Made by a program: the position numbers and the translations under genes
In this document: positions 966 to 57,130 of the stretch, one piece after another
How the letters are laid out: the number at the start of each line of letters is the position of its first letter
Numbering within the stretch: position 1 is the first letter of the stretch
NCBI GenBank assembly: GCA_963721805.1
Contig: CAVRJY010000004.1
Span: 96,001 to 160,000 of the forward strand
Length of the DNA stretch: 64,000 nucleotides
Direction: 5' to 3'
Source: Nitrospirota bacterium
Lineage (GTDB): Bacteria > Nitrospirota > Thermodesulfovibrionia > Thermodesulfovibrionales > JdFR-86
The notes under the pieces: generated by a model
Seen by the model: only the letters and a program-made list of their open reading frames with translations
Databases searched by the model: none
Told to the model about the DNA's origin: nothing

Positions 966-1031
966 TGTAATGTGCTCTGGAGGTCGGGTTCCGGTGCCCT
1001 GACGCAGTATCAAGCGATTTCGCGCGACTTT
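966..1031 (-). repeat. Dispersed rod-like repeat, copy J (5' half only)
   Basis: Reverse complement reads AAAGTCGCGCGAAATCGCTTGATACTGCGTCAGGGC...CCTCCAGAGCACAT, matching the heads of the other copies. Confidence 0.75.
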
Positions 1032-1046
1032 GTATAATAATAGGGT

Positions 1047-2327
1047 ATGAGCGATTTGAAGGTTAAGCACAAGTGCCCCAACTGCGGCGCCCCGGTTACC
1101 TTAGCCGAGGCCGACCGCTTCCTGACCTGCGGGTTTTGCAAGGTGCGACTCTACATGCGGATGCCCGGCATGCCCCGCTACGTCCTGCCATCGAACGAGC
1201 CCCTCACCGACGACACCGTGCACGTCCCATACCTCCGCATGCGCGGGATGTACTTCACGCTCCGCGACGCCGGCGTGGCCGAGGGCAAGGTGCTCGACAC
1301 GAGCCTGAAGGCAGCGGCTGTGGACTTCATGCCCGAGGGGCTGGGCGTCAGGCCGCAGGCGCTCGAGCTGCTGCCCGCGCCCGAGGACTCGGCGCGGCTG
1401 CCGCTTCGGGCCGCGCCCGAGGACATGCTCCGAAAGACGATGGGGGGAGCGCGCATGTCCGACGCATTCGGCTCTGCTGAGGACGCCATCCGCTACAGGT
1501 CGTTCATCGGGGATTCGTCCTGCGTGATCTACTACCCGGTCAGGCCGGATGGCGGCGGCGTGCGTGACTGCGTGGAGGGCCGCACGATGGCGCAGCTTAC
1601 GGCCGGGCGGCGCGACTCGATCACGGCGCGCGCCCCGCACGACGGCTGGGCGATAAAGTTCGTCGCGGCCAAGTGCCCGCGCTGCGGCTGGGACCTCGAC
1701 GCGAAGGGCAAGGCCGCGGCCCTGCTGTGCCGCAACTGCACCTCGGTATGGCGCATGCCGGCCCAGGACTCCGAGGGCCCGGCGAGCTTCAGCCCCGTAG
1801 AGTTCCACACCGTTCGCGACCAGGAGGGCGCGCCCCCGCCTTCGTGCTACATCCCGTTTTGGAGGATGAGGGCCGACGTCACGGGCGAGCTCAGCGCCAG
1901 CACTTACGGCGACCTCATCAGGCTCGCGAACCTCCCGCTCGTCGCAACGCCGGAGCTTAACGCTGTGCCGCTTCACTTCTGGGTCCCGGCGTTCCGCTGC
2001 CCGCCAACGCTGTTCCTGCGCCTCTCGCGCCAGCTCACCGGAGCGAGGCCGAGGCCGGAACTCATGGACTCAGGCTCGCTGCCGCCCGCGCAAGGCCCGC
2101 AAGTATACGAGCCGACGCTCTCGGCCGAGGACGCCCCGGAGGCCGCGCACCTGATCTTCGCCTCGATGATCACGAAACGCAAGGAGACGTTCAAGCAGCT
2201 CGGCTCGACGCGCATCGAGCCGAAGGGGTATGAATTCGTATACATCCCGTTTGGCGAGCGGGGGGGAGATTACGTCCACCAATTGTTGGGTTTTGCGATC
2301 CCGAAGGCGGCACTTACATACAAGTAG
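1047..2327 (+). CDS. Hypothetical protein with two zinc-ribbon modules
   Basis: 426 aa; CPNCG..CGFC and CPRCG..CRNC cysteine pairs; host-like codon usage. Confidence 0.8.
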   Translation: MSDLKVKHKCPNCGAPVTLAEADRFLTCGFCKVRLYMRMPGMPRYVLPSNEPLTDDTVHVPYLRMRGMYFTLRDAGVAEGKVLDTSLKAAAVDFMPEGLGVRPQALELLPAPEDSARLPLRAAPEDMLRKTMGGARMSDAFGSAEDAIRYRSFIGDSSCVIYYPVRPDGGGVRDCVEGRTMAQLTAGRRDSITARAPHDGWAIKFVAAKCPRCGWDLDAKGKAAALLCRNCTSVWRMPAQDSEGPASFSPVEFHTVRDQEGAPPPSCYIPFWRMRADVTGELSASTYGDLIRLANLPLVATPELNAVPLHFWVPAFRCPPTLFLRLSRQLTGARPRPELMDSGSLPPAQGPQVYEPTLSAEDAPEAAHLIFASMITKRKETFKQLGSTRIEPKGYEFVYIPFGERGGDYVHQLLGFAIPKAALTYK

Positions 2328-2333
2328 GCTATT

Positions 2334-2547
2334 GAAAGCGCTCCAAATCGCTTGATACTGCGTTGGGCGCAATTTTACCAAGCGGGACTCGCCCTCTATG
2401 TACGTCACAGTACACCATCGGGGTGCCACGGGCACTTCTCCTAAAAGACAGGGGCCAACCGGCCCCCTTGTCTGAAGACGATTTGGGCGCGCTTTCGGGG
2501 GGCACGGACGAAGGACGCCCCCCGCGCCCCACAAGGTCAACAGCATT
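2334..2547 (+). repeat. Dispersed rod-like repeat, copy A (with internal hairpin doublet and tail)
   Basis: GAAAGCGCTCCAAATCG ... CGATTTGGGCGCGCTTTC inverted arms; TGTAC-GTCACA-GTACA apex; AAGGTCAACAGCATT tail. Confidence 0.9.
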
Positions 2548-8513: not shown

Positions 8514-11500
8514 ATGGCAAAGATCAGGATTCACGAGCTCGCAAAACAGCTTGATATAGCGAACAAGGAGATTATAACATTCCTTGAGAAAAACGGCATT
8601 GCGGGCAAGACCCACTCTTCGAGCATCGAGGACGACCTCGTCGGAAAGATCACGGGCGCACTCGGCAAGAAGGCAGCCGCTTCTGCGGCGGCCCCGGCGG
8701 CCCCGGCCGCAACCAAGGCCCCTTCACAGCAGCCAGCGAAGCCCGGCGTTCAGCCCGGAACTCAGCCCGGAGCCCAGATAGTCAAGCCGGCCGAACCACG
8801 CCCGCGATTCATACACAAGCCTCCGTATGGCCGCCCGGCACAGCCGGCAACCACATCCACTGCGACAACCACACCGCCTGCCCAGACGACGACCCCAGGC
8901 GCCCCACAGCAGCCAAGTGGCGGGTATCAGGGACAGCGCCCCAGCGGCCCAGGCACCGGATATCAGGGTCAGCGCCCCAGCGGCCCCGGTGCCGGATATC
9001 AGGGACAGAGGCCCAGCGGCCCGGGCACCGGATATCAGGGTCAGCGCCCCAGCGGCCCAGGCACCGGGTATCAGGGTCAGAGGCCTAGCAGCCCCGGCAC
9101 CGGATATCAGGGACAGCGCCCCAGCGGCCCGGGCACCGGATATCAGGGCCAGCGCCCCAGCGGCCCAGGCACCGGGTATCAGGGTCAGAGGCCTAGCGGC
9201 CCAGGCACCGGATATCAGGGCGGACAGCGCCCCAGCGGCCCGGGCACCGGGTATCAGGGACAGAGGCCCAGCGGCCCCGGCACCGGATATCAGGGCGGAC
9301 AGCGCCCCGGCGGCGGGTATCAGGACCGCAAACCAGCAGGCCCTCCCGGCACAAAGGGCGGGTATCAGGGCCGTCCTCCTCTCCCGAGGGGTGAGCAGCG
9401 CCCGAAGCCCGCAACGACGCCTAACTATTCCCTTAAGCCCCGGTACGAGCCCCCGAGGGATTCATCCGCGGGCGTCACGGTAGGCGACCTGCTGAAGCAG
9501 CCCCTGGAGATAACGGTTGTACCGCGCATAGGTGAGGAAGAGGCCGAGGCCAAGGTCCCGGACCGTTACAGAAAGACGATCGAGGCCGACAAGGTCGAGA
9601 AATTCAAGGCCAAGCCCGCGATGGGCAAGGCCTTCCAGGCCATACGCAAGATAGACCAGAAGAAGTGGCATGACCCGAGGGGCGGAAAGAGGCCCGGGGG
9701 CGGCGGGTACCGCTACGGCGGCAAGTCCGATTCGAAGGGCCCGCTTACGACCGCGCCTCGCAAGAAGGTCATAAAGCTCATGGAAGGCGCGACCGTAAAG
9801 GAGTTCGCCGAGCTCATAAGCGTCAAGCTCTCGGATATCATCAAGAAATTCATGGAGATGGGCCTTACGCCCACGTTAAACCAGCCGATAGACATAGACG
9901 CGGCCCTCCTCGTGGCCGATGCCTTTGGCGTAAACGTCGAGATCGCCGAGGCCGAGGACATGGTCACAGAGGAGGAGCTCGTAATCGACGAGACCTCCAC
10001 CCTCGTGCACCGGCCCCCGGTCGTCACTATCATGGGCCACGTCGACCACGGCAAGACCTCGCTGCTGGACGCGATCCGCCAGACCAAGGTAACGGAATCC
10101 GAGGCCGGCGGCATCACGCAGCACATCGGCGCATACAAGGTCTCTCTGAAGGGCAAGGAAATCGTATTCCTGGACACCCCGGGCCACGAGGCCTTCACGG
10201 CCCTGCGCGCACGCGGCGCGAAGGTCACGGACATCGTAGTGCTTATAGTCGCGGCCGACGACGGCGTCAAGCCCCAGACCATCGAGGCCATCGACCACGC
10301 CAAGGCCGCCGGGGTCCCGATCATCGTCGCGATCAACAAGATCGACAAGCCCGGCGCGAACCCGCAGCTGGTCAAGACCGAACTCATGTCGCACCAGATA
10401 GTGCCCGAGGAATACGGCGGCAAGAACATCTTCGCCGAGATCTCGGCCAAGCAGCGCATAGGCATAGAAAACCTGCTGGAACTCATACTCCTGCAGGCCG
10501 ACATGCTCGAACTAAAGGCCAACCCCGACCGCCACGCCAGAGGCGCGATCATCGAAGCCCGGCTCGACAAGGGCCGCGGCCCGGTGGCGACCGTGCTGGT
10601 GCAAAACGGGACGCTCCGCCCCGGCGACGTATTCCTGGCGGGCATGCAGGCCGGCCGCGTAAGGCTTCTGCACGACGACATGGGCAAGCGCATCGAGTCA
10701 GCCGGGCCTTCGACCCCGGTTGAGGTCATGGGCTTCAGCGGCGTGCCGACGGCCGGAGACATCTTCATCTCGATGGACGACGAGCGCCGCGCAAGGCAGA
10801 TCGCGCTCGCGCGCGAGAACAAAATCCGCAGGGCCGAGACCGCCAAGAAGAGCAAGCTCACGCTCGACGAGGTCTACTCCAAGATCAAGGAAGGCGCGAT
10901 CAAGGACCTCAACCTCATCATAAAGGGCGACGTGCAGGGCTCGGTCGAGGCGCTCCGCGAATCCATGGCCGGCATCACGCACGAGCAGGTCAAGGTCAAC
11001 GTCATCCACTCCGCCATAGGCGGCATCAACGAAAGCGACGTGATGCTCGCGGCCGCCTCAAGCGCGATCATCATCGGATTCAACGTCCGCCCGGACGCGA
11101 AGGCCACCCAGGTGGCCGAGAAAGAGGGCGTGGACATAGAGCTTTACAACATCATCTACGAGGCCATCGACGACGTGAAGAAGGCCCTCGAAGGCATGCT
11201 CGAGCCGACCCTTAAAGAGACCATACTGGGCCACGCCGAGGTCCGCCAGACCTTCCAGGTCTCGCGCATCGGCACCATAGCGGGCTGCATGGTCACGGAC
11301 GGCCTGATCCGCCGCGCATCGGACGGCATCAGGCTGATCCGAGACAGCATCGTCGTATACACCGGGAAGATCGACACCCTGAAGCGCTTTAAGGACGACG
11401 CCAAAGAGGTCGCGACCGGCTATGAGTGCGGCATAACGATAGAGAACTTCAACGACATCAAGGTCGGTGATATAATCGAAAACTTCGTCATCGAAAAGGT

Positions 11501-14309: not shown

Positions 14310-14472
14310 AAAGCGCGCGAAATACGCGTGATACTGCGTCAGGGCTTCAAAGACGCGCCCTCGGAGTACGTCACAGTACACCGTCGGGCGGTCTCCTCGC
14401 CCTTCCTTGTCTGACACGATTTCTCGCACTTTAAGTTACTGAAACGTAATCGTGCGAGCGGTCAACTGCATT
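14310..14472 (+). repeat. Dispersed rod-like repeat, copy B
   Basis: AAAGCGCGCGAAAT...TGATACTGCGTC...GTAC-GTCACA-GTAC...CCTTGTCTGA...ATTTCTCGCACTTT; tail GGTCAACTGCATT. Confidence 0.85.
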
Positions 14473-23851: not shown

Positions 23852-23973
23852 GGGGCCGGTTGGCCCCCTCTTCTTGGAAAGAGGTGCCCGTGGCACCCCG
23901 ATGGTGTACCTGGGCGCACATAGAGGGCGAGTTTTCGAAGTCCAACGCAGCATCAAGCGATTAGGAGCGCTTT
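23852..23973 (-). repeat. Dispersed rod-like repeat, copy C (3' arm missing; same hairpin doublet as copy A)
   Basis: Reverse complement: AAAGCGCTCCTAATCGCTTGATGCTGCGTT...CTCGCCCTCTATGTGC..GTACACCATCGGGGTGCCACGGGCACC...GGGGCCAACCGGCCCC. Confidence 0.88.
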
Positions 23974-42131: not shown

Positions 42132-42423
42132 AAAGCGCTCCAAATCGCTTGATACTGCGTTGGGCTTCTTAAACTCGCCCTCTACTGAAAGCGGCTGCAA
42201 TTGCGTGATACTGCGTCACTGCCTCGGAATTCCTCCCTCGATGTAGCGGTGCTACACCTACGGTCGTTTTCCTCGCCGTTCCTTGTCTGACGCAATATCG
42301 CTCGCTTTCATGGGGATACACCATCGGGCGGTCTTCTCGCCCTGCCTTGTCTGAAGCCGATTTGGGCGCGCTTTCGGGGGAGAGGATGACGTAGCCCCCC
42401 GCACCCCCAAGGTCAACGGCATT
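42132..42423 (+). repeat. Dispersed rod-like repeat, copy D (outer), containing a nested copy
   Basis: AAAGCGCTCCAAATCGCTTGATACTGCGTT head; CGATTTGGGCGCGCTTTC arm; AAGGTCAACGGCATT tail. Confidence 0.9.
42186..42310 (+). repeat. Nested divergent copy of the rod-like repeat (D-inner)
   Basis: TGAAAGCG...TGATACTGCGTC...TGTAGC-GGT-GCTACA...TTCCTTGTCTGA...CGCTTTCA inside the apex of copy D. Confidence 0.88.
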
Positions 42424-42455
42424 GATTGGTATTTTGCATCAACAATCTTCTAACA

Positions 42456-43051
42456 GTGAAGCTCCCCGTGGCAAGCCACGGGGCATCCGTGGCGCAGCTA
42501 TAAGTCCAGCTGCGCAGGCAATTGCTTCTCTGCTCTGTGGCCGCGTATGTATTTGCGGATCATTTCCGAGGTCAAGCTGTCCCCGACTGTCCGCGCAAAG
42601 TACCCATCCTCCCACAGCTCACCCTTCCATAGTCTTTGCCTCAGCGATGGGTATTGCTTGAACAGCTCACGGGCGCTGATACTTTTCAGGGTTCTGACCA
42701 CCACCCCTATCGAGTACCGTGGCGGGAACGATAGAAATATATGCACATGGTCCTCCGCCACTTCCATCTCCACTATCTCATATTCATACTCTTCAGCTAT
42801 CTCCCTGAAAAGTTCCGCGCACCGCTCGCGCATGTAACTTTGCGCGAACAGTCTCTTGCGATACTTAGGACACCATACCAGATGGTACCCGGTGTCATAT
42901 ACAGCGTGACTCGTCCTGCGTAACCCCATGCCTCATGATAGCCCGCAATTGCCTCGGCGGGAAAGGGGGACTTCCAGCCCCCCTTACATCCCCCCGGCAG
43001 GGATGCCATTCATCCCCGTGGCAAGCCACGGGGCATACTGGCATGGTTTTC
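42456..43051 (-). mobile_element. IS200/IS605-family insertion sequence (tnpA only), copy 1, 596 bp
   Basis: Matches 50421-51016; CCCCGTGGC-TT-GCCACGGGG hairpin at both ends; inserted 3' of TAAC, ends in TCAC, no TSD. Confidence 0.95.
42498..42929 (-). CDS. tnpA: IS200-family Y1 HUH transposase
   Basis: YHLVWCPKYR, DHVH (HUH), LKSISAR, LW..GYF, IRKYI catalytic Tyr. Confidence 0.96.
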   Translation of the reverse strand: MGLRRTSHAVYDTGYHLVWCPKYRKRLFAQSYMRERCAELFREIAEEYEYEIVEMEVAEDHVHIFLSFPPRYSIGVVVRTLKSISARELFKQYPSLRQRLWKGELWEDGYFARTVGDSLTSEMIRKYIRGHRAEKQLPAQLDL

Positions 43052-43206
43052 GTTAAAACAGGCTTTTTGTTTCTTTTGCCTGGCTTGTCACCTTTATCAG
43101 TTTTGCATAAGAATATCACTCTATTGTTTTCCTTGACTTCATAAAGGTGGTCAGCGCAAAACGCTTTGCCGCATTGAGAGCACTTTAATATGATTATGTT
43201 ATTCAT
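43052..43206 (-). pseudogene. Small AT-rich zinc-finger-like ORF interrupted by the IS
   Basis: CSQCGKAFCADH motif; the reading frame runs into the IS at the TAAC target. Confidence 0.45.
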
Positions 43207-43225
43207 ACAAAATCATCTCTACTCG

Positions 43226-43504
43226 TCATTGTTTGTACAAATTTATCTTGCGCAGTATAATCCCAATTATAAAACTCAGTCCCGAGCATACTCCAGCGGA
43301 GAAGGAAAGGAAAGCCGAGGATTCTTTGGTTAGCATTGCAATGCCGGCAAATATTTGAGTTAGACCGAGATAAAATATTATCACATAAAAAAGATTTTTG
43401 TTGTTTTTGAAGTGTGTTCTCTTCAGCGCAAACATACTAATAACCATTGACGCCCCTAAAATAATCACAATAACACCAGCTATGGTGAAAAAATCTATCT
43501 TCAT
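43226..43504 (-). CDS. Small AT-rich 3-TM membrane protein
   Basis: Three hydrophobic segments; base composition unlike the host genes. Confidence 0.65.
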   Translation of the reverse strand: MKIDFFTIAGVIVIILGASMVISMFALKRTHFKNNKNLFYVIIFYLGLTQIFAGIAMLTKESSAFLSFSAGVCSGLSFIIGIILRKINLYKQ

Positions 43505-43585
43505 GAGCCTAAGATACCACAACCGCGTTGAGTATGCCAGAGGATTCTTAGCAGTAGGCAGCGCGCGGATGTGGCTTATCTAATA

Positions 43586-43764
43586 AGCCGTTGACCTTGG
43601 GGGAGCGGGGGTCCAGCGGCAGAGCCGCGACCAACCCCCGAAAGCGCGATAAATCGCGTCAGACTAGGAAGGTCGAGAAGACCGCCCGACGGTGTACTGA
43701 GACGTACTCCGAGGGCGCGTCTTTGATGGCCTGACAACGTATCACGCGACTTTAGCGCGCTTTC
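43586..43764 (-). repeat. Dispersed rod-like repeat, copy I (closest to copy B)
   Basis: Reverse complement shares CAAAGACGCGCCCTCGGAGTACGTC.CAGTACACCGTCGGGCGGTCT with copy B; tail AAGGTCAACGGC. Confidence 0.9.
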
Positions 43765-45129: not shown

Positions 45130-45283
45130 TTTCTTTAAAGCGCTCCAAATCGTCTTCAGACTAGGAACCGGACGAAAAACGACCGCAGTCGTATATGGAA
45201 TGGACATACGTCAAGGATCGTTTTTCAGACGGTGAAAGGAGAGGGCCAGTCGGCCCTAAGCGATTTGGAGCGCTTTGAAGAAA
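45130..45283 (-). repeat. Dispersed rod-like repeat, copy E (closest to copy H; no tail)
   Basis: 23-bp terminal inverted repeat with one mismatch; shares CTGCGGTCGTTTTTCGTCCGGTTCCTAGTCTGAAGACGATTTGG with copy H. Confidence 0.9.
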
Positions 45284-45291
45284 GCGAGCTA

Positions 45292-46629: not shown

Positions 46630-46705
46630 CTCAGGCAGGTCTCCTTCATGCGAATTCCAACGGTAAATAATAACATATTGACGGTCACTCTCAAGCCGTG
46701 ATAGA

Positions 46706-46732
46706 GTGTTACGAATAGGAGAATCGTAACAC
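46706..46732. promoter_or_regulatory. NikR operator
   Basis: Perfect inverted repeat GTGTTACGA-N9-TCGTAACAC just upstream of nikR; geometry fits widely spaced NikR half-sites. Confidence 0.85.
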
Positions 46733-46747
46733 GAAAGGGAGCACGCG

Positions 46748-47164
46748 ATGGCGCTGACGAGGTTCGGGATATCGCTGGACGAGGGGCTATTAGCCGGGTT
46801 CGACCGGATGATCTCGGCGCGCGGCTGGGCCAACCGCAGCGAGGCGATCCGCGACCTGATCCGCGACGCCCTCGTGCGCGAGGAGTGGGAGGCAGGCCGG
46901 GAGGAGACCGCCGGCACGATCACGCTCGTCTACTCACACGACACCCGCGAGCTGGCCGAGACCTTAAACGAGATCCAGCACCATCACCATGCGTCCGTAG
47001 TGTCCTCGATGCACATACACCTCGACGAGCACCGCTGCCTGGAGGTGCTCGTAGTGCGCGGGCCGGGGCACACGCTGCGCAGGATCGCGGACCGGCTGAT
47101 CGGGGTGCGCGGGGTCCTGCACGGCAAGCTCACGCTCACGACCACAGGGCAGCATATCAAATAG
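46748..47164 (+). CDS. nikR: Nickel-responsive regulator NikR
   Basis: [35 protein letters not shown]. Confidence 0.96.
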
Positions 47165-47845
47165 ATGCACATCCCTGACGGATACCTCGGGCCTCAGACC
47201 TACGTCCCGCTATGGGGCGCGACCGCGCTGGCATGGGCCGCGGCCTCGCGCAGCTTGAAACGCACGCTCTCGACCCGCAACGTGCCGTACCTCGCGATGG
47301 CATCGGCCTTCTCGTTTTTGATAATGATGTTCAACATCCCGATACCCGGCGGCACGACGGGACATGCGGTAGGTGCGGGGCTGGTGGCGATACTCCTCGG
47401 GCCATGGGCCGCGGTCGCGGCGGTATCTGTCGCGCTCGTGATACAGGCGCTCGTATTCGGCGACGGCGGCATAACCGCGCTCGGGGCCAACTGCTTTAAC
47501 ATGGCGGTCGTGATGCCGTTTATCTCTTACTGGACCTTCAGGCTGCTTCGGGGCGATGCCCTTACGGGCGCGCGCTTCAAGATCGCGGGGTTCCTCTCTG
47601 GGTACCTCGGTCTCGTCGCGGCCGCGGTATGCACCGGGGTGGAGTTCGGCATCCAGCCGCTGATCGCGCATGCGCCGGACGGGACTCCTTTATATGCGCC
47701 CTACCCGCTCTCGGTCGCGCTGCCGGCGATGGCGATAAGCCACATGGCCGTATTCGGGGTCGTGGAGGGCGTGGTCACAATGCTCGTGATCGCACAGTTC
47801 GCCGCCCATGAGCCGGGGATGCTAGGGCGCGGGGCCTCGAAATGA
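47165..47845 (+). CDS. cbiM: Ni/Co ECF transporter substrate component (NikM/CbiM)
   Basis: MHIPDG N-terminus; GTTGH; QALVFGDGGITALGAN. Confidence 0.93.
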   Translation: MHIPDGYLGPQTYVPLWGATALAWAAASRSLKRTLSTRNVPYLAMASAFSFLIMMFNIPIPGGTTGHAVGAGLVAILLGPWAAVAAVSVALVIQALVFGDGGITALGANCFNMAVVMPFISYWTFRLLRGDALTGARFKIAGFLSGYLGLVAAAVCTGVEFGIQPLIAHAPDGTPLYAPYPLSVALPAMAISHMAVFGVVEGVVTMLVIAQFAAHEPGMLGRGASK

Positions 47846-48114
47846 AGAAGCGCTTCCAGCGGAATCTATGGATAGGGCTTTTGGTGCTTGCGGCCCTGAG
47901 CCCGCTTGGGATAATCATACCCCGATGGCTCGGCGCTGGCGGCGCGTGGGGCGAGTGGAGCATAGAGAAGCTATGGAGCGCCCCTATCGCAGACTACGGC
48001 CGGGGCGGGATCTTGTGGTACGCCGTCAGCGCGGCCATAGGGCTCGGGGTATGCGCGGCGATAGCCTATGCGATAGGCCGCGCGGTCAGGCGCAGGGGCG
48101 GCAATGGCCGGTAA
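47842..48114 (+). CDS. NikN/PDGLE-like auxiliary membrane subunit (short)
   Basis: LSPLG..AWGEW..APIADY with two TM helices; overlaps its neighbours. Confidence 0.75.
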   Translation: MKKRFQRNLWIGLLVLAALSPLGIIIPRWLGAGGAWGEWSIEKLWSAPIADYGRGGILWYAVSAAIGLGVCAAIAYAIGRAVRRRGGNGR

Positions 48115-48982
48115 CCTCCCGGCGTTTCTGCTCGAGCGCTCAGAGGCGCGGCCTCCTTCAGAGCGGGGTCCTAGATTTCGCACCCCTGTGATAGAGCGCG
48201 GGATAAGGCAGACCGCGTCTCTTATCAGCCGGACGTTTGAGCAGTGGGACACCGCGCGGCGTGACGGCGTGCTCCAGCGTGTCGACGCGCGCGTGAAGCT
48301 CGCCGCACTTATAGCGATGCTCGTGGTCATATCGCTAAAGCGCACCTTGATGCCGCTTGCCGTGGCAGAGGCAGCGCTTCTGGCGGTAGCGGCTCTCTCG
48401 GGCATAGGGTTTATGAACTACGCCAGGCGGGTATTCCTATTCGCGTTCGTCTTTGGGTTTCTGGTAGCCGCCCCATCGGCCTTCATCACGCCCGGAGAGG
48501 GGATCGTCTCTGTGATCGGAAGTTTCGGCATAACGAGGCCGGGCGCGATGGGAGTTGCGATGCTTACGCTGCGCGTGGGCTGCTCTGTCTCGGCCGCGCT
48601 GCTGATACTCTACAGCACCCCGCTGACCGAGCTTCTTCGCAGCTTGAAACTCCTGCGAGTGCCGGATGCGGTCGTGCTGATGATCAGCCTCGCGTACAAA
48701 TACATCTTCCTGCTTAGCTACGGGGTCGAGCGGATGCACCTCGCGGTGATGGCGAGGCTCGGCATGAGGCTGCACTCAGGCGAGGCCCGCCACTGGGCCA
48801 GCGGGCGCATGGCCGCGCTGTTCATCCGCTCCAGGGAGCAGTGCGAGGAGCTCTATAAGGCGATGCTGGCGCGAGGGTTTCGGGGCGAGGTCAGGCTGCG
48901 CTCTGCCGGAAGGCTCGGTATAAGCGATCTCATTGCCGCACTCTTCGCGGCCGCGCTGATCGCGGCGGTGGCGGCGCTATGA
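48104..48982 (+). CDS. cbiQ: ECF transporter T component (NikQ/CbiQ)
   Basis: DARVKL, ST...L..L.VP, YKYIF, AMLARGF. Confidence 0.92.
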   Translation: MAGNLPAFLLERSEARPPSERGPRFRTPVIERGIRQTASLISRTFEQWDTARRDGVLQRVDARVKLAALIAMLVVISLKRTLMPLAVAEAALLAVAALSGIGFMNYARRVFLFAFVFGFLVAAPSAFITPGEGIVSVIGSFGITRPGAMGVAMLTLRVGCSVSAALLILYSTPLTELLRSLKLLRVPDAVVLMISLAYKYIFLLSYGVERMHLAVMARLGMRLHSGEARHWASGRMAALFIRSREQCEELYKAMLARGFRGEVRLRSAGRLGISDLIAALFAAALIAAVAAL

Positions 48983-49791
48983 GCGACTGCTTCGCACTCA
49001 AGGACGTGACCTACGGCTACCGCGCGGGCATACAGGCGCTCGACGGCGTTACCCTGAACATACCCGAAGGCAGCCGGTTTGCGGTGATCGGATCGAACGG
49101 ATCGGGGAAGTCCACGCTCTTTCAGGTCCTGGCCGGGTTGATCGAGCCGACCTCCGGCACGGTCGTATTCCGTGACAGGCCTCTTAATGCCGACGCGCTT
49201 GGACGCGCGGAGTTCGTGCGGTATTTCCGCGGCTCGGTGGGGTACGTGTTTCAGGACCCGGACGTGCAGCTCTTCTGCCCGACCGTGATGGACGAACTCA
49301 CGTACGGCCCCCTGCACCTCGGACTCACGGACGACGAGGCGGTCGGCCGCAGCCGCGAGGTGATGCGGTATTTGGAGATAGAATCGCTCGCGGACCGGCC
49401 CTCATACATGCTCTCGGGCGGTGAGAAAAAGCGCGTGGCCATAGGCTCGGTCCTCACGATGAACCCCAATGTGCTGCTGCTCGACGAGCCGACTAATGGA
49501 TTGGACCCGCGCACGCAGAGCTTCGTCGTGGAACTCATGATTGGCCTCTCTGAGGCCGGAAAGACTGTCATCATCGCAACACACGACCTATCGCTGGTAT
49601 ACGAACTCAAGGCGCAGGTCGCTGTCATGGGCGAGGACCACCGCATAGCGGCAACCGGCCCGGCATCGCAGATACTGGCGGACGAGGACCTGCTGCTTCG
49701 TGCCAACCTGATCCACGAGCACCGGCATATACACGAGGGCAGCCCGGAACACGCTCATAGACACTCGCATTTCTTTTTCCATAGGCATTAG
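48979..49791 (+). CDS. cbiO: ECF transporter ATPase (NikO/CbiO) with His-rich tail
   Basis: GSNGSGKST, FQDPD.QLF, LSGGEKKR, LLDEPT; HEHRHIH tail. Confidence 0.93.
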   Translation: MSDCFALKDVTYGYRAGIQALDGVTLNIPEGSRFAVIGSNGSGKSTLFQVLAGLIEPTSGTVVFRDRPLNADALGRAEFVRYFRGSVGYVFQDPDVQLFCPTVMDELTYGPLHLGLTDDEAVGRSREVMRYLEIESLADRPSYMLSGGEKKRVAIGSVLTMNPNVLLLDEPTNGLDPRTQSFVVELMIGLSEAGKTVIIATHDLSLVYELKAQVAVMGEDHRIAATGPASQILADEDLLLRANLIHEHRHIHEGSPEHAHRHSHFFFHRH

Positions 49792-49792
49792 G

Positions 49793-49967
49793 GAAAGCGC
49801 GCCAAATCGCTTGATACGTTGTCACCATTTGAAAATCGCCCTCCAGAGTACATCTCGGTACACTTGCGGGCTATTTTCAAATGCTTCCTAGTCTAAAGAC
49901 GATTTGGGCGCGCTTTCGGGGGGCACGGAAAAAGGTCGCCCCCCGCGCCCCCAAGGTCAAAGGCATT
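49793..49967 (+). repeat. Dispersed rod-like repeat, copy F
   Basis: 125-bp core differs at 4 positions from the reverse complement of copy G; tail AAGGTCAAAGGCATT. Confidence 0.92.
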
Positions 49968-50014
49968 AATGGATAACTTCCGCACGCGCGTTTTGTTTGA
50001 TATAGAATATAAAC

Positions 50015-50371
50015 ATGGAGCTGTTATATGACTTTGCGCGCGTGACCAGCCGCCAGCCGTTCATGGTCCCGGCGGTGCTCTTCCTCATCCTCTCCGTGCC
50101 GATAGCCTTTGGATGGGTGCCCCGCAACCGGTGGTATGGGATGAGGACGCGCCGGACGCTTGCTAACGATCTCGTTTGGTACGCCTCGAACCGCTTCTGC
50201 GGAATTGCGCTGATCGCGTCGAGCGTCGTTTACCTGTCTGTAGCCGCGATAGTGCCTTACCGCTCGCCAGCCGATGACTTCGATATATGGCTTATCCACG
50301 CGGCCACATTCGTGCTCACGAACGCAGCGAGCTTAATAGCCACTATCGTCTATTCGAGGAGGATAAAATGA
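50015..50371 (+). CDS. SdpI/YhfL-family immunity membrane protein
   Basis: PRNRWYGMRT..TL....W..SNRFCG signature between TM helices. Confidence 0.82.
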   Translation: MELLYDFARVTSRQPFMVPAVLFLILSVPIAFGWVPRNRWYGMRTRRTLANDLVWYASNRFCGIALIASSVVYLSVAAIVPYRSPADDFDIWLIHAATFVLTNAASLIATIVYSRRIK

Positions 50372-50420
50372 TGTCCTTTACCTTGGCGTCCTACTGAAGC
50401 GGTCCCCTTTTATAACAATA

Positions 50421-51016
50421 GTGAAGCTCCCCGTGGCAAGCCACGGGGCATCCGTGGCGCAGCTATAAGTCCAGCTGCGCAGGCAATTGCTTCTCTGCTC
50501 TGTGGCCGCGTATGTATTTGCGGATCATTTCCGAGGTCAAGCTGTCCCCGACTGTCCGCGCAAAGTACCCATCCTCCCACAGCTCACCCTTCCATAGTCT
50601 TTGCCTCAGCGATGGGTATTGCTTGAACAGCTCACGGGCGCTGATACTTTTCAGGGTTCTGACCACCACCCCTATCGAGTACCGTGGCGGGAACGATAGA
50701 AATATATGCACATGGTCCTCCGCCACTTCCATCTCCACTATCTCATATTCATACTCTTCAGCTATCTCCCTGAAAAGTTCCGCGCACCGCTCGCGCATGT
50801 AACTTTGCGCGAACAGTCTCTTGCGATACTTAGGACACCATACCAGATGGTACCCGGTGTCATATACAGCGTGACTCGTCCTGCGTAACCCCATGCCTCA
50901 TGATAGCCCGCAATTGCCTCGGCGGGAAAGGGGGACTTCCAGCCCCCCTTACATCCCCCCGGCAGGGATGCCATTCATCCCCGTGGCAAGCCACGGGGCA
51001 TACTGGCATGGTTTTC
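50421..51016 (-). mobile_element. IS200/IS605-family insertion sequence (tnpA only), copy 2, 596 bp
   Basis: Matches 42456-43051; TAAC target at 51017-51020 (minus strand). Confidence 0.95.
50463..50894 (-). CDS. tnpA: IS200-family Y1 HUH transposase
   Basis: Protein identical to 42498-42929. Confidence 0.96.
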   Translation of the reverse strand: MGLRRTSHAVYDTGYHLVWCPKYRKRLFAQSYMRERCAELFREIAEEYEYEIVEMEVAEDHVHIFLSFPPRYSIGVVVRTLKSISARELFKQYPSLRQRLWKGELWEDGYFARTVGDSLTSEMIRKYIRGHRAEKQLPAQLDL

Positions 51017-51054
51017 GTTAGTTGAAAACGCACGGGCATCAATTTTTACTATTA

Positions 51055-51080
51055 ACTTCGGTTTATATATAAACCAAAGT
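51055..51080. promoter_or_regulatory. Near-perfect 26-bp palindrome ACTTCGGTTTATATATAAACCAAAGT; second copy of the site at 202-223
   Basis: Direct sequence match; function inferred only. Confidence 0.5.
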
Positions 51081-51345
51081 ATCGCATTGTTTGTTGTATA
51101 GTGGTGCTATGAGCAAGATAATCGCATATCCAATGGGCGGGGCAACGAATGAAGCGGGCATCGACGCGTTTTCGGAGGCAGGGTCGAAAACCGCGCGAAT
51201 TATTCGAACATCCGAACAGCGCCGGACTCGGAAAAACGATGTTTTCCAGGGGCTTATCCGCGTATTTGCCTCAAACATCCGAACACATAAAATAAAACGC
51301 GCGCGCGCGGTATGCATATATATGCCTATGATCGGGCCTCAAACC

Positions 51346-51529
51346 ATGCCTTTGACCTTGTGGGGCGCGGGGGGCGGGGCCGACTGGCCCCCTTCTTTCC
51401 CCCCGAAAGCGCGCCCAAATCGTCTTCAGACTAGGAAGCATTTGAAAATAGCCCGCAAGTGTACTGAGATGTACTCTGGAGGGCGATTTTCAAATGGTGA
51501 CGACGTATCAAGCGATTTGGTGCGCTTTC
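51346..51529 (-). repeat. Dispersed rod-like repeat, copy G
   Basis: Inverted near-identical partner of copy F; its tail carries an extra GGGGCCAGTCGGCCCC hairpin. Confidence 0.92.
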
Positions 51530-51542
51530 AAAGAGGCTGCAT

Positions 51543-52007
51543 ATGAGATTTCTTGCGGACGCCATGTTGGGCCGCCTAGCCCGCCGCATGCGCCTGATGG
51601 GGCTGGATACGGTCTATATGCGCGACACTTCGGACGCCGAGGTGCTCAAAGTGGCCCGCGCCGAGGGCCGCATGCTCCTTACGCGCGACGCCGAACTCGC
51701 GGCCCGCCCGAACCCGGCCGGGACCCTGCACCTGCGTGCCAACGACACCGACGGCCAGCTTGCCGAGTTTATGGGGAGGTTCGGTCTTTTATTAGAGGGG
51801 ACCGTGTCCCCGCCCAGATGCCCGCGCTGCAACGGAGAGCTGCGCTTGACGGCCTCGCGGGCCGAGGTCGAGGGCCGCGTGCCGGAGCACGTACTGCACA
51901 GCTACGGGCGGTTTTTTATTTGCTCTGGATGTGGTAATGTCTACTGGGAGGGCACACAGCACGAGGCGATGAGGGAAATGCTCGAAAAATTCCGGGGCCG
52001 CGGATGA
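51543..52007 (+). CDS. Mut7-C RNase domain protein
   Basis: FLADAMLGRLAR..R..G.D, LLTRD, RCPRCNG, C..CG.VYWEG. Confidence 0.9.
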   Translation: MRFLADAMLGRLARRMRLMGLDTVYMRDTSDAEVLKVARAEGRMLLTRDAELAARPNPAGTLHLRANDTDGQLAEFMGRFGLLLEGTVSPPRCPRCNGELRLTASRAEVEGRVPEHVLHSYGRFFICSGCGNVYWEGTQHEAMREMLEKFRGRG

Positions 52008-53050
52008 GGGCGCCCGGCGAGGGCCGCGACCCCTTCCGCAAGCACAAGCGCACGATGCTCTACTCGGCGCTGCTCATAGGCTCGGTGCTCGCCGTGGGCA
52101 CGGCCGGCTACACGCTCATCGAGGGCTGGAACTGGTTCGACTCGCTCTACATGACCGTTATCACGATGACCACGATCGGCTATCAGGAGGTGCACAACCT
52201 CTCGACGGCCGGGCGGGTATTCACCGTGCTTTTCATATTCCTCAGCGTCGGGGCGGTGCTCTATACGTTTAACAACGCCGCGCGCCTGATAGTCGAGGGC
52301 GAACTCAATGACATCTTCGGGAGGCGCAAATTGCAATCGAGGATACAGAAGCTAAGCGGGCATTACATCATATGCGGCTACGGCCGCATGGGCCGGATCA
52401 TCTGCAAGGAACTCCTCACCGAGGGCTCGAAGTTCGTGGTGATCGAAAAGACGCCGTCGCCGGAATTCAGCGAGATCACGGAGTTTCCGGTTATGGTCGG
52501 CGACGCCACGATAGACGAGACGCTGAAGCTGGCCGGTATCGACCGCGCCGCCGGGCTAATCTCGGTCCTGCCCTCGGACGCCGAGAACCTGTTCGTCGTG
52601 CTGAGCGCGCGCGGGCTCAACCCGGGCCTCTTCATCGTCGCGCGCGCGGTGCTCGAAGACAGCGAAAAGAAGCTCATGCGAGCAGGCGCCAGCCGCGTCG
52701 TATCGCCCTACCACATCGGGGGGCTGCGCATCGCGCACACGATCATCAAGCCCGCTGTCGTGGACTTCATCGAGTTTACGACGAACTCCGGCAACATCGA
52801 CCTGCAGATGGAGGAGATCAAGGTCTCGGCCGGCTCGCAGCTCGTCTCGCGCACGATCAGCGAAAGCGGCATCGGCCGCGACCTCGGCGTCATCGTCGTC
52901 TCGATCAAGAACAACGACGGCCGGATGCAGCTGAGCCCCAACAACAGCACCGTGATCAACGAGGGCGATACGCTGATCGTGCTCGGCGAGCAGTCGAAGG
53001 TCACGACTCTTGAGAAGATGGCCAAGGGGGCGACTGCCCCCCTCCTGTAA
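52004..53050 (+). CDS. Potassium channel with TrkA-N/TrkA-C (RCK) domains
   Basis: TMTTIGYQE pore; ICGYGRMG; GDAT; C-terminal TrkA-C. Confidence 0.9.
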   Translation: MRAPGEGRDPFRKHKRTMLYSALLIGSVLAVGTAGYTLIEGWNWFDSLYMTVITMTTIGYQEVHNLSTAGRVFTVLFIFLSVGAVLYTFNNAARLIVEGELNDIFGRRKLQSRIQKLSGHYIICGYGRMGRIICKELLTEGSKFVVIEKTPSPEFSEITEFPVMVGDATIDETLKLAGIDRAAGLISVLPSDAENLFVVLSARGLNPGLFIVARAVLEDSEKKLMRAGASRVVSPYHIGGLRIAHTIIKPAVVDFIEFTTNSGNIDLQMEEIKVSAGSQLVSRTISESGIGRDLGVIVVSIKNNDGRMQLSPNNSTVINEGDTLIVLGEQSKVTTLEKMAKGATAPLL

Positions 53051-53116
53051 AGACCCGGGCGGGCCGTTCCTGTAGGCGGGATGAATCCGTGGCCTCATAA
53101 GGCGTAAAATATATAA

Positions 53117-54370
53117 ATGCCCAATATTAAGATAATCGGCATCGACATACCTCTAAACCTCTTCGGCCGCGAGGCCATCCGCGCACTCTCCCGCAACAAG
53201 ATGCGAAGCGCGCTCTCGGCCATCGGGATCGCGGTAGGGATCGCGGCCGTCGTCTGCGTGGTGGCGATCGGCAACGCCGGATCGAGGCGCGCCGAGCAGC
53301 AGCTGCAGGACCTCGGGGACAACCTCGTATGGATCGAGGCCGGCTCGCGCAACGTCAACGGCGTGCGCTCCGGCAGCCACGGGATGAACTCCCTTACGAT
53401 GGGGGACGCCGAGGCGATCCGCAACGAGGTGCCGCTGATCAAGAGCGTCTCCCCGAACGTGGACGGCCACGTGCTTATCGCGTTTGGGAACCGCAACTGG
53501 ACGACGCACTACCGCGGCGTCACCCCCGAGTACTTCGATATCAAGCGCTGGGACATGGCCGAGGGGGACGTCTTCGCGGACGACGACGTGGCGCATGCCG
53601 CCAACGTCGTCGTGCTCGGCCAGACCGTGCGGCAGCAGGTGTTCGGGGCCGGGCCCGCGGTCGGTCAGGACGCCCGGATCAACAGCCAGCTCTTCCGGGT
53701 GATAGGCGTGCTCGCGCCGAAGGGCCAGACCACGACCGGCTATGACCAGGACGACACCGTAGTGATGCCCTACACCACCGTGCTTAAGAAGATCCGGGGG
53801 CAGGGTTTCATATGGCTCGACGACATCCTGACCTCGGCCGTCTCGCTCGATGCCGCCGAGCCCGCGATAGCGCAGATCAACGCGCTGCTCAGGGACCGGC
53901 ACCACATCCGCCCCGGTGAGGCGGACGACTTCAACATCCGCCACCCGGAGGACGTGATCAAGGCCCAGATCGCGGCGAACCGGACGCTCGCCATCCTGCT
54001 TATAAGCGTGGCCTCGATATCGCTGCTGATCGGCGGCATCGGGATCATGAACGTGATGCTCGTCTCGGTGACGCAGCGGACGAAGGAGATCGGCCTGCGC
54101 CTCGCCGTAGGGGCCACGGCGTGGGCCATACAGGTCCAGTTCCTCGGCGAGGCCGTGATCCTGAGCCTCTTTGGCGGGCTGGCCGGGGTATTCATCGGCG
54201 TGGCGGGCTCTTTCATCATCGGCTCCGTGCTCGGATGGCCGGTTTCGATCCCCCCCGAGGCCCTGGTCCTCGCCCCGGTATTCGCCATAGGGGTCGGGAT
54301 CTTCTTCGGCTTCTATCCGGCATGGCGGGCCACCCAGCTAAACCCGATCACCGCGCTGCGCAACGAGTAG
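53117..54370 (+). CDS. MacB-like ABC transporter permease
   Basis: NKMRSALS..GI..G; GGIGIMNVMLVSVTQRTKEIGLR; FFGFYPA. Confidence 0.92.
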   Translation: MPNIKIIGIDIPLNLFGREAIRALSRNKMRSALSAIGIAVGIAAVVCVVAIGNAGSRRAEQQLQDLGDNLVWIEAGSRNVNGVRSGSHGMNSLTMGDAEAIRNEVPLIKSVSPNVDGHVLIAFGNRNWTTHYRGVTPEYFDIKRWDMAEGDVFADDDVAHAANVVVLGQTVRQQVFGAGPAVGQDARINSQLFRVIGVLAPKGQTTTGYDQDDTVVMPYTTVLKKIRGQGFIWLDDILTSAVSLDAAEPAIAQINALLRDRHHIRPGEADDFNIRHPEDVIKAQIAANRTLAILLISVASISLLIGGIGIMNVMLVSVTQRTKEIGLRLAVGATAWAIQVQFLGEAVILSLFGGLAGVFIGVAGSFIIGSVLGWPVSIPPEALVLAPVFAIGVGIFFGFYPAWRATQLNPITALRNE

Positions 54371-54439
54371 GGGGCCGCGCCTTCTATGTGCTAAGATAGT
54401 ATCCAGCGCATCTCGGGCGCCCTGGGGGGTGTATAGAGC

Positions 54440-56929
54440 ATGGCTGACAAACCGGCTGAAGAGCAGCTTCCCGTCTCACCGACGCCCTACCCTGACGCCG
54501 GCTCCTGCGGGCCGGAGATGGGCAAGCTCTACCGCCTCATCGTCTCGATGCTCTGCAACGACTACCGCCCGCCGCGCAAGGACACGTTCTATAACGGCCT
54601 CGCATACTACGTCCGCGAGCGGCTCATCGACAGATGGATAGCGGCCCAGCGCCTCTCGTACGCGCGAGAGGCCAAGCGCGTCTACTACCTCTCGATGGAG
54701 TTCCTGCCGGGGCCGTTCCTGAAGAGCTACATCACGAACCTCGATATGGCGGATGAGTGCAAGCGCGCGCTGGACTGCTCCGGGTTCACGGTCGACGGCC
54801 TGGCGCCAGAGGAGGCCGAGCCCGGCCTCGGCAACGGCGGCCTGGGGCGGCTCGCGTCGTGCTACATGGACTCGATGGCCACGCTCGGCATATCCGGCTA
54901 CGGCTACGGCATCCGCTACGAGTACGGGATATTCAACCAGCGCATCTCAAACGGCTGGCAGGTCGAGGAGTCCGACAACTGGCTCCAGAAGACCAACCCC
55001 TGGGAGATCGGCCGGCGCGGGTTTCCCTTCGCGCTCAAGTTCTATGGCCGCTCCGAGGCCTACACCGACGAGCAGGGCAACAGGCGCTACCGCTGGGTCG
55101 ACACCGAGACCGTAAACGCGGTGGCCAACGACATCCTGATCCCCGGCTACGGCAACGAGACCGTAAACAACATGCGGCTGTGGTCCGCCGTGTCGAGCAA
55201 GGAATTCAACCTGCAGTTTTTCAACCGCGGCGACTACATCCGCGCGATGGAGGCCAAGGTCCTTACCGAGAACATCTCGAAGGTCCTCTACCCCAGCGAC
55301 GAGCCGGAGCAAGGCAAGACGCTGCGCCTCAGGCAGCAGTACTTCCTCGTGGCCGCGACGTTCCAGGACATCATGCGGCGGTTCCGCAAGCTCCCGATGT
55401 ACATCCGCGACCTGCCGCGCTACGTCGCGGTGCAGCTCAACGACACGCACCCGGCCATCAGCATCCCGGAGCTCATGCGCATCCTCCTGGACGAGGAGGG
55501 CATGGGCTGGGACGAGGCCTGGCAGGTATGCGTCGAGACCTTCGCGTACACCAACCACACCGTCATGCCCGAGGCGCTTGAGCGCTGGCCGGTGAGGCTG
55601 TTCATCAAGCTCTTCCCGCGCCACCTGGAGATCATATACGAGATCAACCGGCGGTTCCTCGAAGAGGTCGCGGCCAAGTATCCGGGTGACGCCGACCGCC
55701 TCCGCCGCATGTCGATCATCGAGGAGGGCGCTGAGAAAAAGGTCCGCATGGCGCACTTAGCTATTGTCGGCAGCCACCGCGTAAACGGCGTGGCCGCGCT
55801 CCATACCCATATCCTCAAGACGCGCCTGTTTAAGGACTTCGACGAGTTCTTCCCCGGCCGCATCATCAACGTCACGAACGGCATCACCCCGCGCCGCTGG
55901 CTCATGCAGGCCAACCCACCGCTTGCGGCGCTCATCACCAGCACTATCGGGCCGGGCTGGACCACGAACCTCTACGACCTGCGCTGGCTCGAGCCGCACG
56001 CCGAGAACCAGGCATTCCGCGCGTCGTGGCGCAAGGTCAAGCGCGAGAACAAGAAGCGCCTCGCCGAGTACATCCTTCAAGTGACCGGCATAACCGTGGA
56101 CGCCGACTCGATGTTCGACATCCAGACGAAGCGCATCCACGAGTACAAGCGCCAGCTTTTAAACGTCCTGCACGTCATCACGCTCTATAACCGCATGCGC
56201 AAGGAGCCGCGCGCCAAGTACGTCCCGCGCACCGTTATCATCGCCGGGAAGGCCGCGCCCGGCTACTACATGGCCAAGCTCCTGATCAAGCTCGTCAACT
56301 CGGTGGCCGACGTAGTAAACAACGACCCCGCGATCAAGGGCCGCTTAAAACTCGTCTTCCTGCCCAACTACAACGTCTCGCAGGCCGAGAAGGTCGTCGC
56401 CGCCGCGGACGTCTCGGAGCAGATATCGACCGCGGGCATGGAGGCCTCCGGCACCGGGAATATGAAGTTCTCCCTAAACGGCGCTGCCATCGTGGGGACG
56501 CTCGACGGCGCTAACGTCGAGATCCGAGACGAGGTCGGCGAGCGCAATATCTTTATCTTCGGGCTCACCGAGGACGAGGTACAGGGCCTGCGCACCTCGG
56601 GCTACAACCCCTGGCACTTCTACCACTCGGACCCCGAACTGCGCGAGGCCGTGGACATGATCACCTCGGGCCGCTTCAGCCCGGAGGAGCGCGACCTGTT
56701 TAGGCCGATCACGCAGTCGATCCTCGATCAGGGCGACTACTACATGGTGCTCTCTGACTACCGCGCGTTCATCAACGTGCAGGACGAGGTCGACCGCGCG
56801 TACCGCGACATCGAGGGCTGGACACGCCGGTCCATACTCAACACCGCACGGATGGGCAAGTTTTCGAGCGACAGGGCGGTCAAGGAATATGCAGAAAAGA
56901 TATGGGGACTGGGACAGGTCGGAATATAA
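54440..56929 (+). CDS. glgP: Glycogen/alpha-glucan phosphorylase
   Basis: LGNGGLGRLA, QLNDTHP, KRIHEYKRQ, EASGTGNMKF. Confidence 0.97.
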   Translation: MADKPAEEQLPVSPTPYPDAGSCGPEMGKLYRLIVSMLCNDYRPPRKDTFYNGLAYYVRERLIDRWIAAQRLSYAREAKRVYYLSMEFLPGPFLKSYITNLDMADECKRALDCSGFTVDGLAPEEAEPGLGNGGLGRLASCYMDSMATLGISGYGYGIRYEYGIFNQRISNGWQVEESDNWLQKTNPWEIGRRGFPFALKFYGRSEAYTDEQGNRRYRWVDTETVNAVANDILIPGYGNETVNNMRLWSAVSSKEFNLQFFNRGDYIRAMEAKVLTENISKVLYPSDEPEQGKTLRLRQQYFLVAATFQDIMRRFRKLPMYIRDLPRYVAVQLNDTHPAISIPELMRILLDEEGMGWDEAWQVCVETFAYTNHTVMPEALERWPVRLFIKLFPRHLEIIYEINRRFLEEVAAKYPGDADRLRRMSIIEEGAEKKVRMAHLAIVGSHRVNGVAALHTHILKTRLFKDFDEFFPGRIINVTNGITPRRWLMQANPPLAALITSTIGPGWTTNLYDLRWLEPHAENQAFRASWRKVKRENKKRLAEYILQVTGITVDADSMFDIQTKRIHEYKRQLLNVLHVITLYNRMRKEPRAKYVPRTVIIAGKAAPGYYMAKLLIKLVNSVADVVNNDPAIKGRLKLVFLPNYNVSQAEKVVAAADVSEQISTAGMEASGTGNMKFSLNGAAIVGTLDGANVEIRDEVGERNIFIFGLTEDEVQGLRTSGYNPWHFYHSDPELREAVDMITSGRFSPEERDLFRPITQSILDQGDYYMVLSDYRAFINVQDEVDRAYRDIEGWTRRSILNTARMGKFSSDRAVKEYAEKIWGLGQVGI

Positions 56930-56944
56930 TCTCCTGTTCTTCTT

Positions 56945-57130
56945 AAAGCGCTCCAAATCGCTTGATACGTCGTCACCGTCCGAAAAACGATCCTCGAAGT
57001 ATGTCCATATACTACTGCGGTCGTTTTTCGTCCGGTTCCTAGTCTGAAGACGATTTGGCGCGCTTTCGGGGGTGTGGAAAAAGGGGGGGCCAGTCGGCCC
57101 GCCCCCCGGGCCCCCGTGGTCAAAGGCATT
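56945..57130 (+). repeat. Dispersed rod-like repeat, copy H
   Basis: AAAGCGCTCCAAATCGCTTGATACGTCGTCACC head; AGTAT-GTCCAT-ATACT apex; GGTCAAAGGCATT tail. Confidence 0.9.

Follow-up and report, generated by a model that had tools for sequence, protein, structure and literature searches.

Integron cassettes and the pdif modules of Acinetobacter carry small cargo, rich in toxin-antitoxin genes, between repeated sites. MITEPsy1 of Pseudomonas syringae is a likely miniature transposon (MITE) derived from the IS5 family of insertion sequences (IS), with demonstrated mobility and insertion after CTAG or YTAA (PMC3189936). In Geobacter uraniireducens, the Chunjie MITE is characterized, as reviews summarize it, by 21-bp repeats, 9-bp duplications, and A+T richness (PMC3184786, PMC10969869). 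In G. metallireducens, Gmet_R1001-R1024 are 24 intergenic 'predicted short RNA elements', which measure 111-116 bp as aligned in the supplement (Aklujkar et al. 2009, PMC2700814, Additional file 4). Here, we analyze a window of 64,000 nucleotides from a Nitrospirota bacterium (the whole stretch at positions 96,001 to 160,000 of contig CAVRJY010000004.1, assembly GCA_963721805.1), in which a reading of the letters alone, hereafter the sequence-only reading, had described 11 copies of a structured intergenic element of about 122 bp that we call the rod. The repeats are genuine: they are copies of a miniature-transposon-like element, and several bacterial groups have preserved its long hairpin. 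The family probably descends from an IS5-family-type MITE that carried an old, selected hairpin core.

The rod family, its fold, and its ends

A profile built from 148 rods located 235 non-overlapping loci in the 2.78-Mb genome and none in a locally shuffled version of it; an earlier profile made from the six intact cores of the window had given 231 loci. The loci are short, multi-copy, and non-coding, and 20 of 228 overlap a gene called by our own simple caller (2746 genes, used for all gene positions below). Among the 147 rods of 119-125 bp, no two sequences are identical and the mean identity is 77%, with 52 rods having a neighbor at 97% identity or more. No replication-strand bias is visible in 100-kb bins. 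Searches of Rfam gave no match in the window, none at E<=1 across positions 41500-57500, and a single off-target match (E=0.22) for seven loci.

Most copies in this genome belong to a one-sided unit: a head, the rod, a spacer of 27-52 bp that falls into several unrelated classes, a tail of the form GGTCAA-N-GGC, and AT-rich bases. The tail matrix found 188 sites, 175 of them behind a rod and 13 solo, and none in shuffled DNA. Each of the 10 positions of the tail motif is conserved at 79-100%, and the spacing of the sequence beyond it varies.

The sequence-only reading had proposed that selection acts on a single-stranded structure with co-varying stems, and both ideas are supported here. The outer stem, the TGATAC/CCT(T/A)GTCTGA segment, the three middle stems that it quoted, and the apex variants are as it described them. 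Folding z-scores range from -3.4 to -7.3 for both strands of three copies, with a median of -5.9 over 40 of the 147 copies. Five column pairs co-vary at E<0.1 under a crude, tree-based null of our own construction; all of them lie along the antidiagonal of the rod, and four are 90-97% paired. An alignment of 43 sequences, drawn from this genome, its relatives, Clostridia, a Bacteroidaceae-labelled genome, and Berkiella, has 19 of 22 pairs with two-sided changes, 88% of its cells paired (vs 34-39% when slid), and near-invariant loop motifs. Orthologous copies in other lineages tell the same story: seven pairs, six of them confirmed by a flanking protein, have accumulated 24 two-sided and 7 one-sided changes that keep a base pair vs 16 that break one. 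One such pair spans two genera, with flanking proteins 73% and rods 88% identical. The core pairing and an asymmetry between pyrimidine-rich and purine-rich loops are thus kept across phyla and at orthologous sites, so the fold is under selection after insertion.

Judged from its sequence, the core is strand-asymmetric, and either strand may be the working one. On the strand as the sequence-only reading wrote it, the loops are pyrimidine-rich (1386 vs 451 non-paired bases in 45 rods of other genomes), and it is the opposite strand that folds more stably, in 127 of the 147 copies with RNA parameters and in 135 with DNA parameters. The strand antisense to the adjacent gene is likewise the more stable in 44 of the 45 rods from other genomes. 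The difference arises partly because the energy model prefers purine loops, and isolated G-T vs A-C appositions favor neither strand (38 vs 58 here, 25 vs 30 in the rods of other genomes). A likeness to a K-turn and to helix 8 of the signal recognition particle, judged by eye, was dropped because the second loop variant breaks both.

The ends of the rod link it to transposons. The relatives G002, G003, G006, and G013, like a minor subfamily here, have the rod enclosed by symmetric repeats (AGAACCTRTCTCAAAA or AGGCARCCTCTAAAAA), and these terminal inverted repeats agree with those of an IS5-family element. These copies often have TA or TWA flanks, by reading on both sides in several copies of the relatives. 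Among the 30 DUF772-type IS loci of the phylum, several have repeats matching rod ends, and 8 of 10 proteins tested from IS elements of the phylum pass the cut-off of the IS5 model NF033581. One end of locus L492, ctag followed by CAGGCTGCTGAAAAAG, equals the rod head of L219/L450 over 16 of 16 bases, L477, L487, and L488 have ends similar to GGCARCCTCTAAAAA, the end type of G003 and of this genome's minor subfamily, and the tail has 8 bases in common with the right repeat of L485. When 30 loci were chosen by the repeat CAGGMTGYTGAAAAA alone, the rod began exactly at this repeat in 14, and TAG, TAA, or TGA preceded it in 20. On an IS5 repeat matrix, the head flanks of the rods also outscore AAAG-anchored controls (p=1e-11). 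At the level of sequence, the repeat-flanked form therefore has the features of the IS5-derived MITE class. The dominant tailed form is a derived variant, for which the search for a transposase in this genome gave none.

The rod is patchily distributed: it was found in 9 of 41 relatives with one search model (R1) and in 53 of 150 genomes of the phylum with another (R2), and five genomes outside the phylum have 7-41 copies each; these counts are lower bounds, as only the best candidates per genome were scored. The tailed pattern was found in one of 401 genomes of the phylum, this one, and its 40 matches in metagenomes were attributed to chance, none of the 40 scoring under R1. Viral contigs gave no match to the central palindrome and 112 and 41 matches to two repeat patterns, with no transposase between paired repeats, and a search of plasmids returned nothing meaningful. 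Tandem arrays of rods are frequent in Clostridia and Berkiella. In Clostridia (L042, L045, L052, and the L233-L261 range), the stop codon is the base of the outer stem and co-varies with its partner (TAA/TTA, TGA/TCA).

Heads at gene ends, tails toward foreign islets

The heads of the one-sided form lie against native gene ends and its tails point toward islets of acquired genes, a polarity that, like the adjacency to stop codons, was absent from the sequence-only reading. A co-oriented stop codon lies at most 30 bp from the head in 111 of 227 rods, and the stops next to heads are TAG or TAA in 90 of 110 cases, vs 61% genome-wide (p=3e-6). In other genomes, rods also sit between -2 and +6 bp from a stop, at 10 of 20 loci of the phylum and 11 of 16 loci outside it. 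Neighboring copies with tails inward are separated by a median of 1.8 kb (51 of 71 by less than 3 kb), and those with heads inward by 9.1 kb (6 of 69 by less than 3 kb). The G+C content at third codon positions (GC3) falls below 0.65 in 27% of the tail-side genes, 2% of the head-side genes, and 8% of all genes. About a quarter of the genes with GC3 below 0.6 are located inside the 64 tails-in pairs shorter than 6.5 kb (42 of 154, vs 76 of 2592 other genes), and the 21 heads-in pairs contain no low-GC3 gene. Of the junctions that hold pairs, 32 are tandem, 24 convergent, and 4 divergent.

The cargo of the islets includes many toxin-antitoxin pairs, IS200 and IS481 elements, and unknown genes of low GC. 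Domain matches among 26 chosen proteins comprise HicAB, Gp49/HTH, MNT-HEPN, DUF4160/DUF2442, Phd, and SRAP. Several of the 13 solo tails form direct repeats between toxin-antitoxin pairs within islets. The IS481-family element has ten copies on contigs C1 and C2, several of which lie in islets within a further repeated module. Among the matches listed for contigs of four public DNA runs, none joins the two sides of an islet; among the sequencing runs listed, none was of RNA.

The copies also mark breaks in gene order. We compared the genome with a 398-kb sample of one rod-free relative, G005, in which 205 adjacent gene pairs have orthologues here: 144 junctions are conserved (one with a rod head), 8 have insertions (one with heads on both sides), and 53 are broken (13 with a head), so that heads occur at 13/53 broken vs 1/144 conserved junctions (p=1.3e-7). 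The comparison of filled and empty sites that the sequence-only reading had proposed yielded, at this genus-level distance, two junctions empty in G005 and filled by rods here. In 8 of 8 relatives the Mut7-C gene (window position 51543) stands behind rpoC; the junction is split here, with a rod head at each broken end, and in G003 it bears a truncated rod of the repeat type.

The window has two islets and all 11 copies where they had been placed (window positions):

965..1030 (-): 5' half of a rod, tailless; head lies ahead of ORF 1047-2327, 16 bp from its start
2335..2547 (+): rod (2335-2495) carrying two inserts, followed by a G/C hairpin spacer and the tail (GGTCAA at 2535); head 7 bp past the stop of ORF 1047-2327
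14310..14472 (+): intact rod (14310-14432), then tail (14460) after a 27-bp spacer that has no GGGGG/CCCCC hairpin; hemC has the head on its start side
23852..23973 (-): 5' part of a rod ending in a mini-hairpin insert; head about 10 bp past the stop of the ATP-dependent DNA ligase gene
42132..42423 (+): outer rod (42132-42374) whose apex is split by a nested rod; a hairpin spacer and the tail (42411) follow; borders islet 1 on the left
42186..42310 (+): bare rod, the nested one, its ends TGA...TCA; one further such nesting in the genome, at C1:1546473-1546714
42424..43585: islet 1, with tails facing inward on both sides; holds an IS200 copy (about 42452-43051) and an ORF of 92 aa, GC3 0.40
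43586..43763 (-): intact rod (43641-43763) with tail (43596); head 12 bp past the stop of a cyclopropane-synthase-like gene; borders islet 1 on the right
45130..45283 (-): altered rod (45137-45276) with a mini-hairpin in place of the TGATAC segment, tailless; adjoins the stop of the UDP-glucose dehydrogenase gene
49794..49967 (+): intact rod (49794-49916) with tail (49955); head 2 bp past the stop of the cobalt ABC ATPase gene; borders islet 2 on the left
49968..51345: islet 2; SdpI/YfhL gene 50015-50371, IS200 copy (about 50417-51016), and inner module of about 330 bp (51010-51345)
51010..51345 (-): inner repeat module of about 330 bp with several GTTCGGATG repeats and an AT-rich end
51346..51528 (-): intact rod (51406-51528) with tail (51357); head lies ahead of the Mut7-C gene, 14 bp from its start
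56945..57130 (+): intact rod (56945-57066), mini-hairpin spacer, and tail (57118); head 15 bp past the stop of the glycogen phosphorylase gene

The six intact cores (the five listed as such and the nested one at 42188-42308) each measure 121-123 bp, as had been reported. The sequence-only reading had given most copies a GGGGG..CCCCC hairpin and a GGTCAA end; the tail is present on 7 of 11, the spacer of the copy at 14310 is free of the hairpin, and the copy at 45130-45283 has no tail. The copies at 966-1031 and 23852-23973 are 5' parts only.

Several other repeats share these sites. The inner module has 42 matches in the genome, 36 of which start at most 90 bp from a tail on the same strand; outside this genome, matches of 29-31 bp only were found, in 2 of 120 genomes of the order. 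Near-identical IS200 copies, inserted after TAAC, number six in the genome; the two of the window are those listed, and five of the six have a rod within about 850 bp and are mostly in islets. Another repeat family, consisting of small hairpins such as GGGCCAGTCGGCCC and of GCGAATAG-hairpin units in arrays, is found inserted in rods, spacers, and islets (window 2440-2470, 23852-23870, 45235-45260, and 51375-51395) and at many intergenic sites. An element that we take to be IS30-like from a motif is inserted at one position, in the right middle stem of the rod, in 5 of its 7 copies (C1:388349, C1:649314, C1:759627, C2:368205, and C2:398153), and C4:339850 shows an apparent excision footprint of it.

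Among the neighboring genes, clpB (39433-42079) is split into two ORFs near 41463, where contigs of four public runs often differ by one base (41463-41464), which may reflect a frameshift or an assembly error. The gene of translation initiation factor 2 contains a 36-bp tandem repeat of about 8-11 units (8885-9280). The ATP-dependent DNA ligase (23984-25717) has an N-terminal, an adenylation, and a C-terminal domain; ligases of this type are more common in archaea and eukaryotes.

A proposed history and its alternatives

The history that we favor starts from the repeat-flanked form, in which the rod lies between IS5-like terminal inverted repeats, usually with TA-type flanks, as in the relatives and the minor subfamily. 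An IS5 DDE transposase acting in trans would have inserted such MITEs at TA(G/A) targets, so that rods came to abut stop codons; as an insertion on a stop codon leaves the gene intact, heads would have collected at gene ends. Selection has maintained the pairing and loop asymmetry of the core, and this genome has expanded the one-sided form, in which the outer repeat at the head is decayed and the tail conserved, with heads at native genes and synteny breaks and tails toward foreign islets. We tentatively suggest, as a possibility rather than an expectation, that the tail is the end that stayed active. Transposition or recombination at the tail end, into AT-rich incoming DNA, could then have trapped genes between two tails and shuffled gene blocks, and further IS200, IS481, and IS30-like insertions may later have been drawn to the islets. 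Since the search of this genome gave neither an IS5 transposase nor an integron integrase, and no general target duplication was seen, we infer the islet mechanism rather than observe it. A bolder and rather doubtful extension would make the tailed rods a chromosome-wide gene-capture system built from domesticated transposon ends, integron-like without an integron integrase. A protein would recognize the folded core and anchor the site to the native gene end, and the tail would be the active joint for the insertion of toxin-antitoxin or defense cassettes and for the rearrangement of gene blocks. If the tail is indeed the active joint, this would be an undescribed route of gene gain; if it is not, the family is a good example of MITE relics setting where foreign DNA is tolerated.

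A number of observations weigh against this history. The ends of the dominant form score far below true repeats on the IS5 matrix (medians of -0.5 for the head and -6.5 for the tail vs 20, the tail control not being anchor-matched), and YTAR is not the top 4-mer at head stops. No IS5, IS1182, or IS4 transposase was found in this genome, which is 94% complete (0 matches to PF05598, PF01609, and NF033581), nor in G002 and G006. No rod lies inside or beside any of the 30 DUF772-type IS loci, and none was found near six IS5/IS4/IS1182 fragments in G003 and G013. By eye, the IS5-type repeat is absent from the rods of Clostridia and Berkiella, which form tandem arrays, and the core may therefore predate the IS5 ends. 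The tailed form has no general target duplication, and direct repeats are not above those of shuffled pairings (171 elements, 64 islets). Within a pair, the two partners resemble each other no more than random copies do (0.75 vs 0.76, 33 pairs), which argues against simple composite transposons and led us to reject one made of identical copies. The enrichment at synteny breaks comes from one relative and 398 kb, with breaks that are not placed by lineage, and is confounded by operon boundaries. Lastly, IS5-type repeats also flank unrelated hairpins: at L058, L068, L085, L080, L084, and L448 they surround CGTC-type REP hairpins, other palindromes, and GACCAGA repeats, which suggests that MITE ends capture hairpin modules.

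The sequence-only reading had seen no target-site duplication, and this holds for the tailed form; a duplication as the rule, long or short, is rejected, with one clear exception. At C5:73460-73760 of this genome, a single tailed element splits the ancestral overlap of two cell-shape genes, penicillin-binding-protein-like and rodA-like (names from sequence reading), with a 16-21-bp duplication of the overlap.

The alternative that survives best overlaps with the MITE history and differs in what is primary. The rod would be in the first place a domesticated cis-acting structured element, a 3' untranslated region RNA or a protein-bound folded single-stranded DNA, placed after stop codons, with IS5 ends as one vehicle among others; islets would gather behind it since it insulates native genes. 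The retention of orthologous copies, even between two genera, the 24 two-sided and 7 one-sided changes that keep pairs against 16 that break them, and the near-invariant loops would all be expected of such an element, and the Geobacter family was called predicted short RNAs, one of which lies within the dap operon (PMC2700814). The more stable fold is however the one antisense to the adjacent gene, here and in the other genomes, the base appositions pick no strand, and many complete relatives have no rod at all. We consider this account unlikely as the primary one.

Less likely still is that the tail is the recombination site of an undescribed cassette system, akin to integrons or pdif modules, at which a resident or visiting recombinase inserts cassettes. 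The cargo is cassette-like, several solo tails stand in direct repeat between toxin-antitoxin pairs, and the tail motif is conserved behind spacers of unrelated classes. Yet the sites are mostly inverted rather than direct, the spacing beyond the tail is variable, and the tailed form is confined to one of 401 genomes. The seven tyrosine recombinases (PF00589) are XerC/XerD-like or phage-type by sequence and context, the nearest lying 3 kb from a rod; none is IntI-like by eye, TIGR02249 not having been run.

The sequence-only reading had rightly suspected a non-autonomous mobile element, but its HUH-enzyme proposal, framed here as a REPIN- or PATE-like element that RAYT or the IS200 TnpA would move in single-stranded form, is largely refuted and very improbable here. 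It would account for the strand-asymmetric hairpin, the tailed form without target duplication, the nested bare rods, the tandem arrays of other phyla, and the IS200 copies within islets, but the only Y1 proteins of this genome are those of the six IS200 copies, whose hairpins, cleavage motifs, and TAAC/TTCAC boundaries are not shared with the rod, no RAYT was found here, the rod-rich G002, G003, and G006 have no Y1 match, many genomes lacking an R1 match do have Y1, no rod lies within about 1.5 kb of 28 Y1 loci from relatives, and the rod ends match the repeats of IS5-family (DDE) elements.

Comparison with known systems

The islets resemble integron cassettes and pdif modules in their small, toxin-antitoxin-rich cargo between repeated sites. 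They differ in the orientation of the sites, which is mainly inverted, and in that the search gave no integron integrase and no dif-like 28-bp site was apparent by eye. As with REP/REPIN-RAYT systems, the hairpins are extragenic, numerous, and close to gene ends, and they attract insertion sequences; unlike those systems, the rods come without a RAYT found here, measure 122 bp instead of 20-40 bp, and have IS5-type ends in the relatives. The bracketing of passenger genes by two short structured elements recalls the MITE-bounded mobilization units IMU and NFM2-MITE, which, as the review presents them, have identical copies and duplications at the outer ends, whereas rod partners are not especially alike and their outer flanks show no duplication (PMC3184786). 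The Chunjie MITE fits the rod poorly; it is set apart here by the descriptions in reviews, with sequences uncompared. No literature on the tailed form was found in a search that left most subscription papers and ISfinder outside.

The sequence-only reading had not recognized a named family, which stands as far as Rfam is concerned. The central palindrome of the Geobacter elements Gmet_R1001-R1024, however, is present with one mismatch in 2 copies here (a motif-level likeness), and their supplement shows the same loop motifs, TCCTCRACGTA/TACGCCTSCG and CTGCGT/GCCTTG. The relevant passages and supplement of that paper offer an alignment and an RNA guess and make no link to a transposon, a tail, or an islet polarity (PMC2700814). 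A family listed in Geobacter as short RNAs is now linked to the ends of IS5-type transposons.

With IS5-derived MITEs (MITEPsy1, PMC3189936) and NF033581 elements, the rods have in common that they are short, non-coding, and multi-copy, with matching ends in the relatives and flanks of the TA/CTAG type. The main form here departs from them in its decayed, asymmetric ends, the lack of a visible duplication and of a cognate transposase among those searched, and its polarity toward islets. It departs from them also in its interior, which is conserved, co-varying, strand-asymmetric, and common to several phyla. Such conservation, long after insertion, is unusual for the interior of a MITE and makes the core a clear target for binding and mutation tests.

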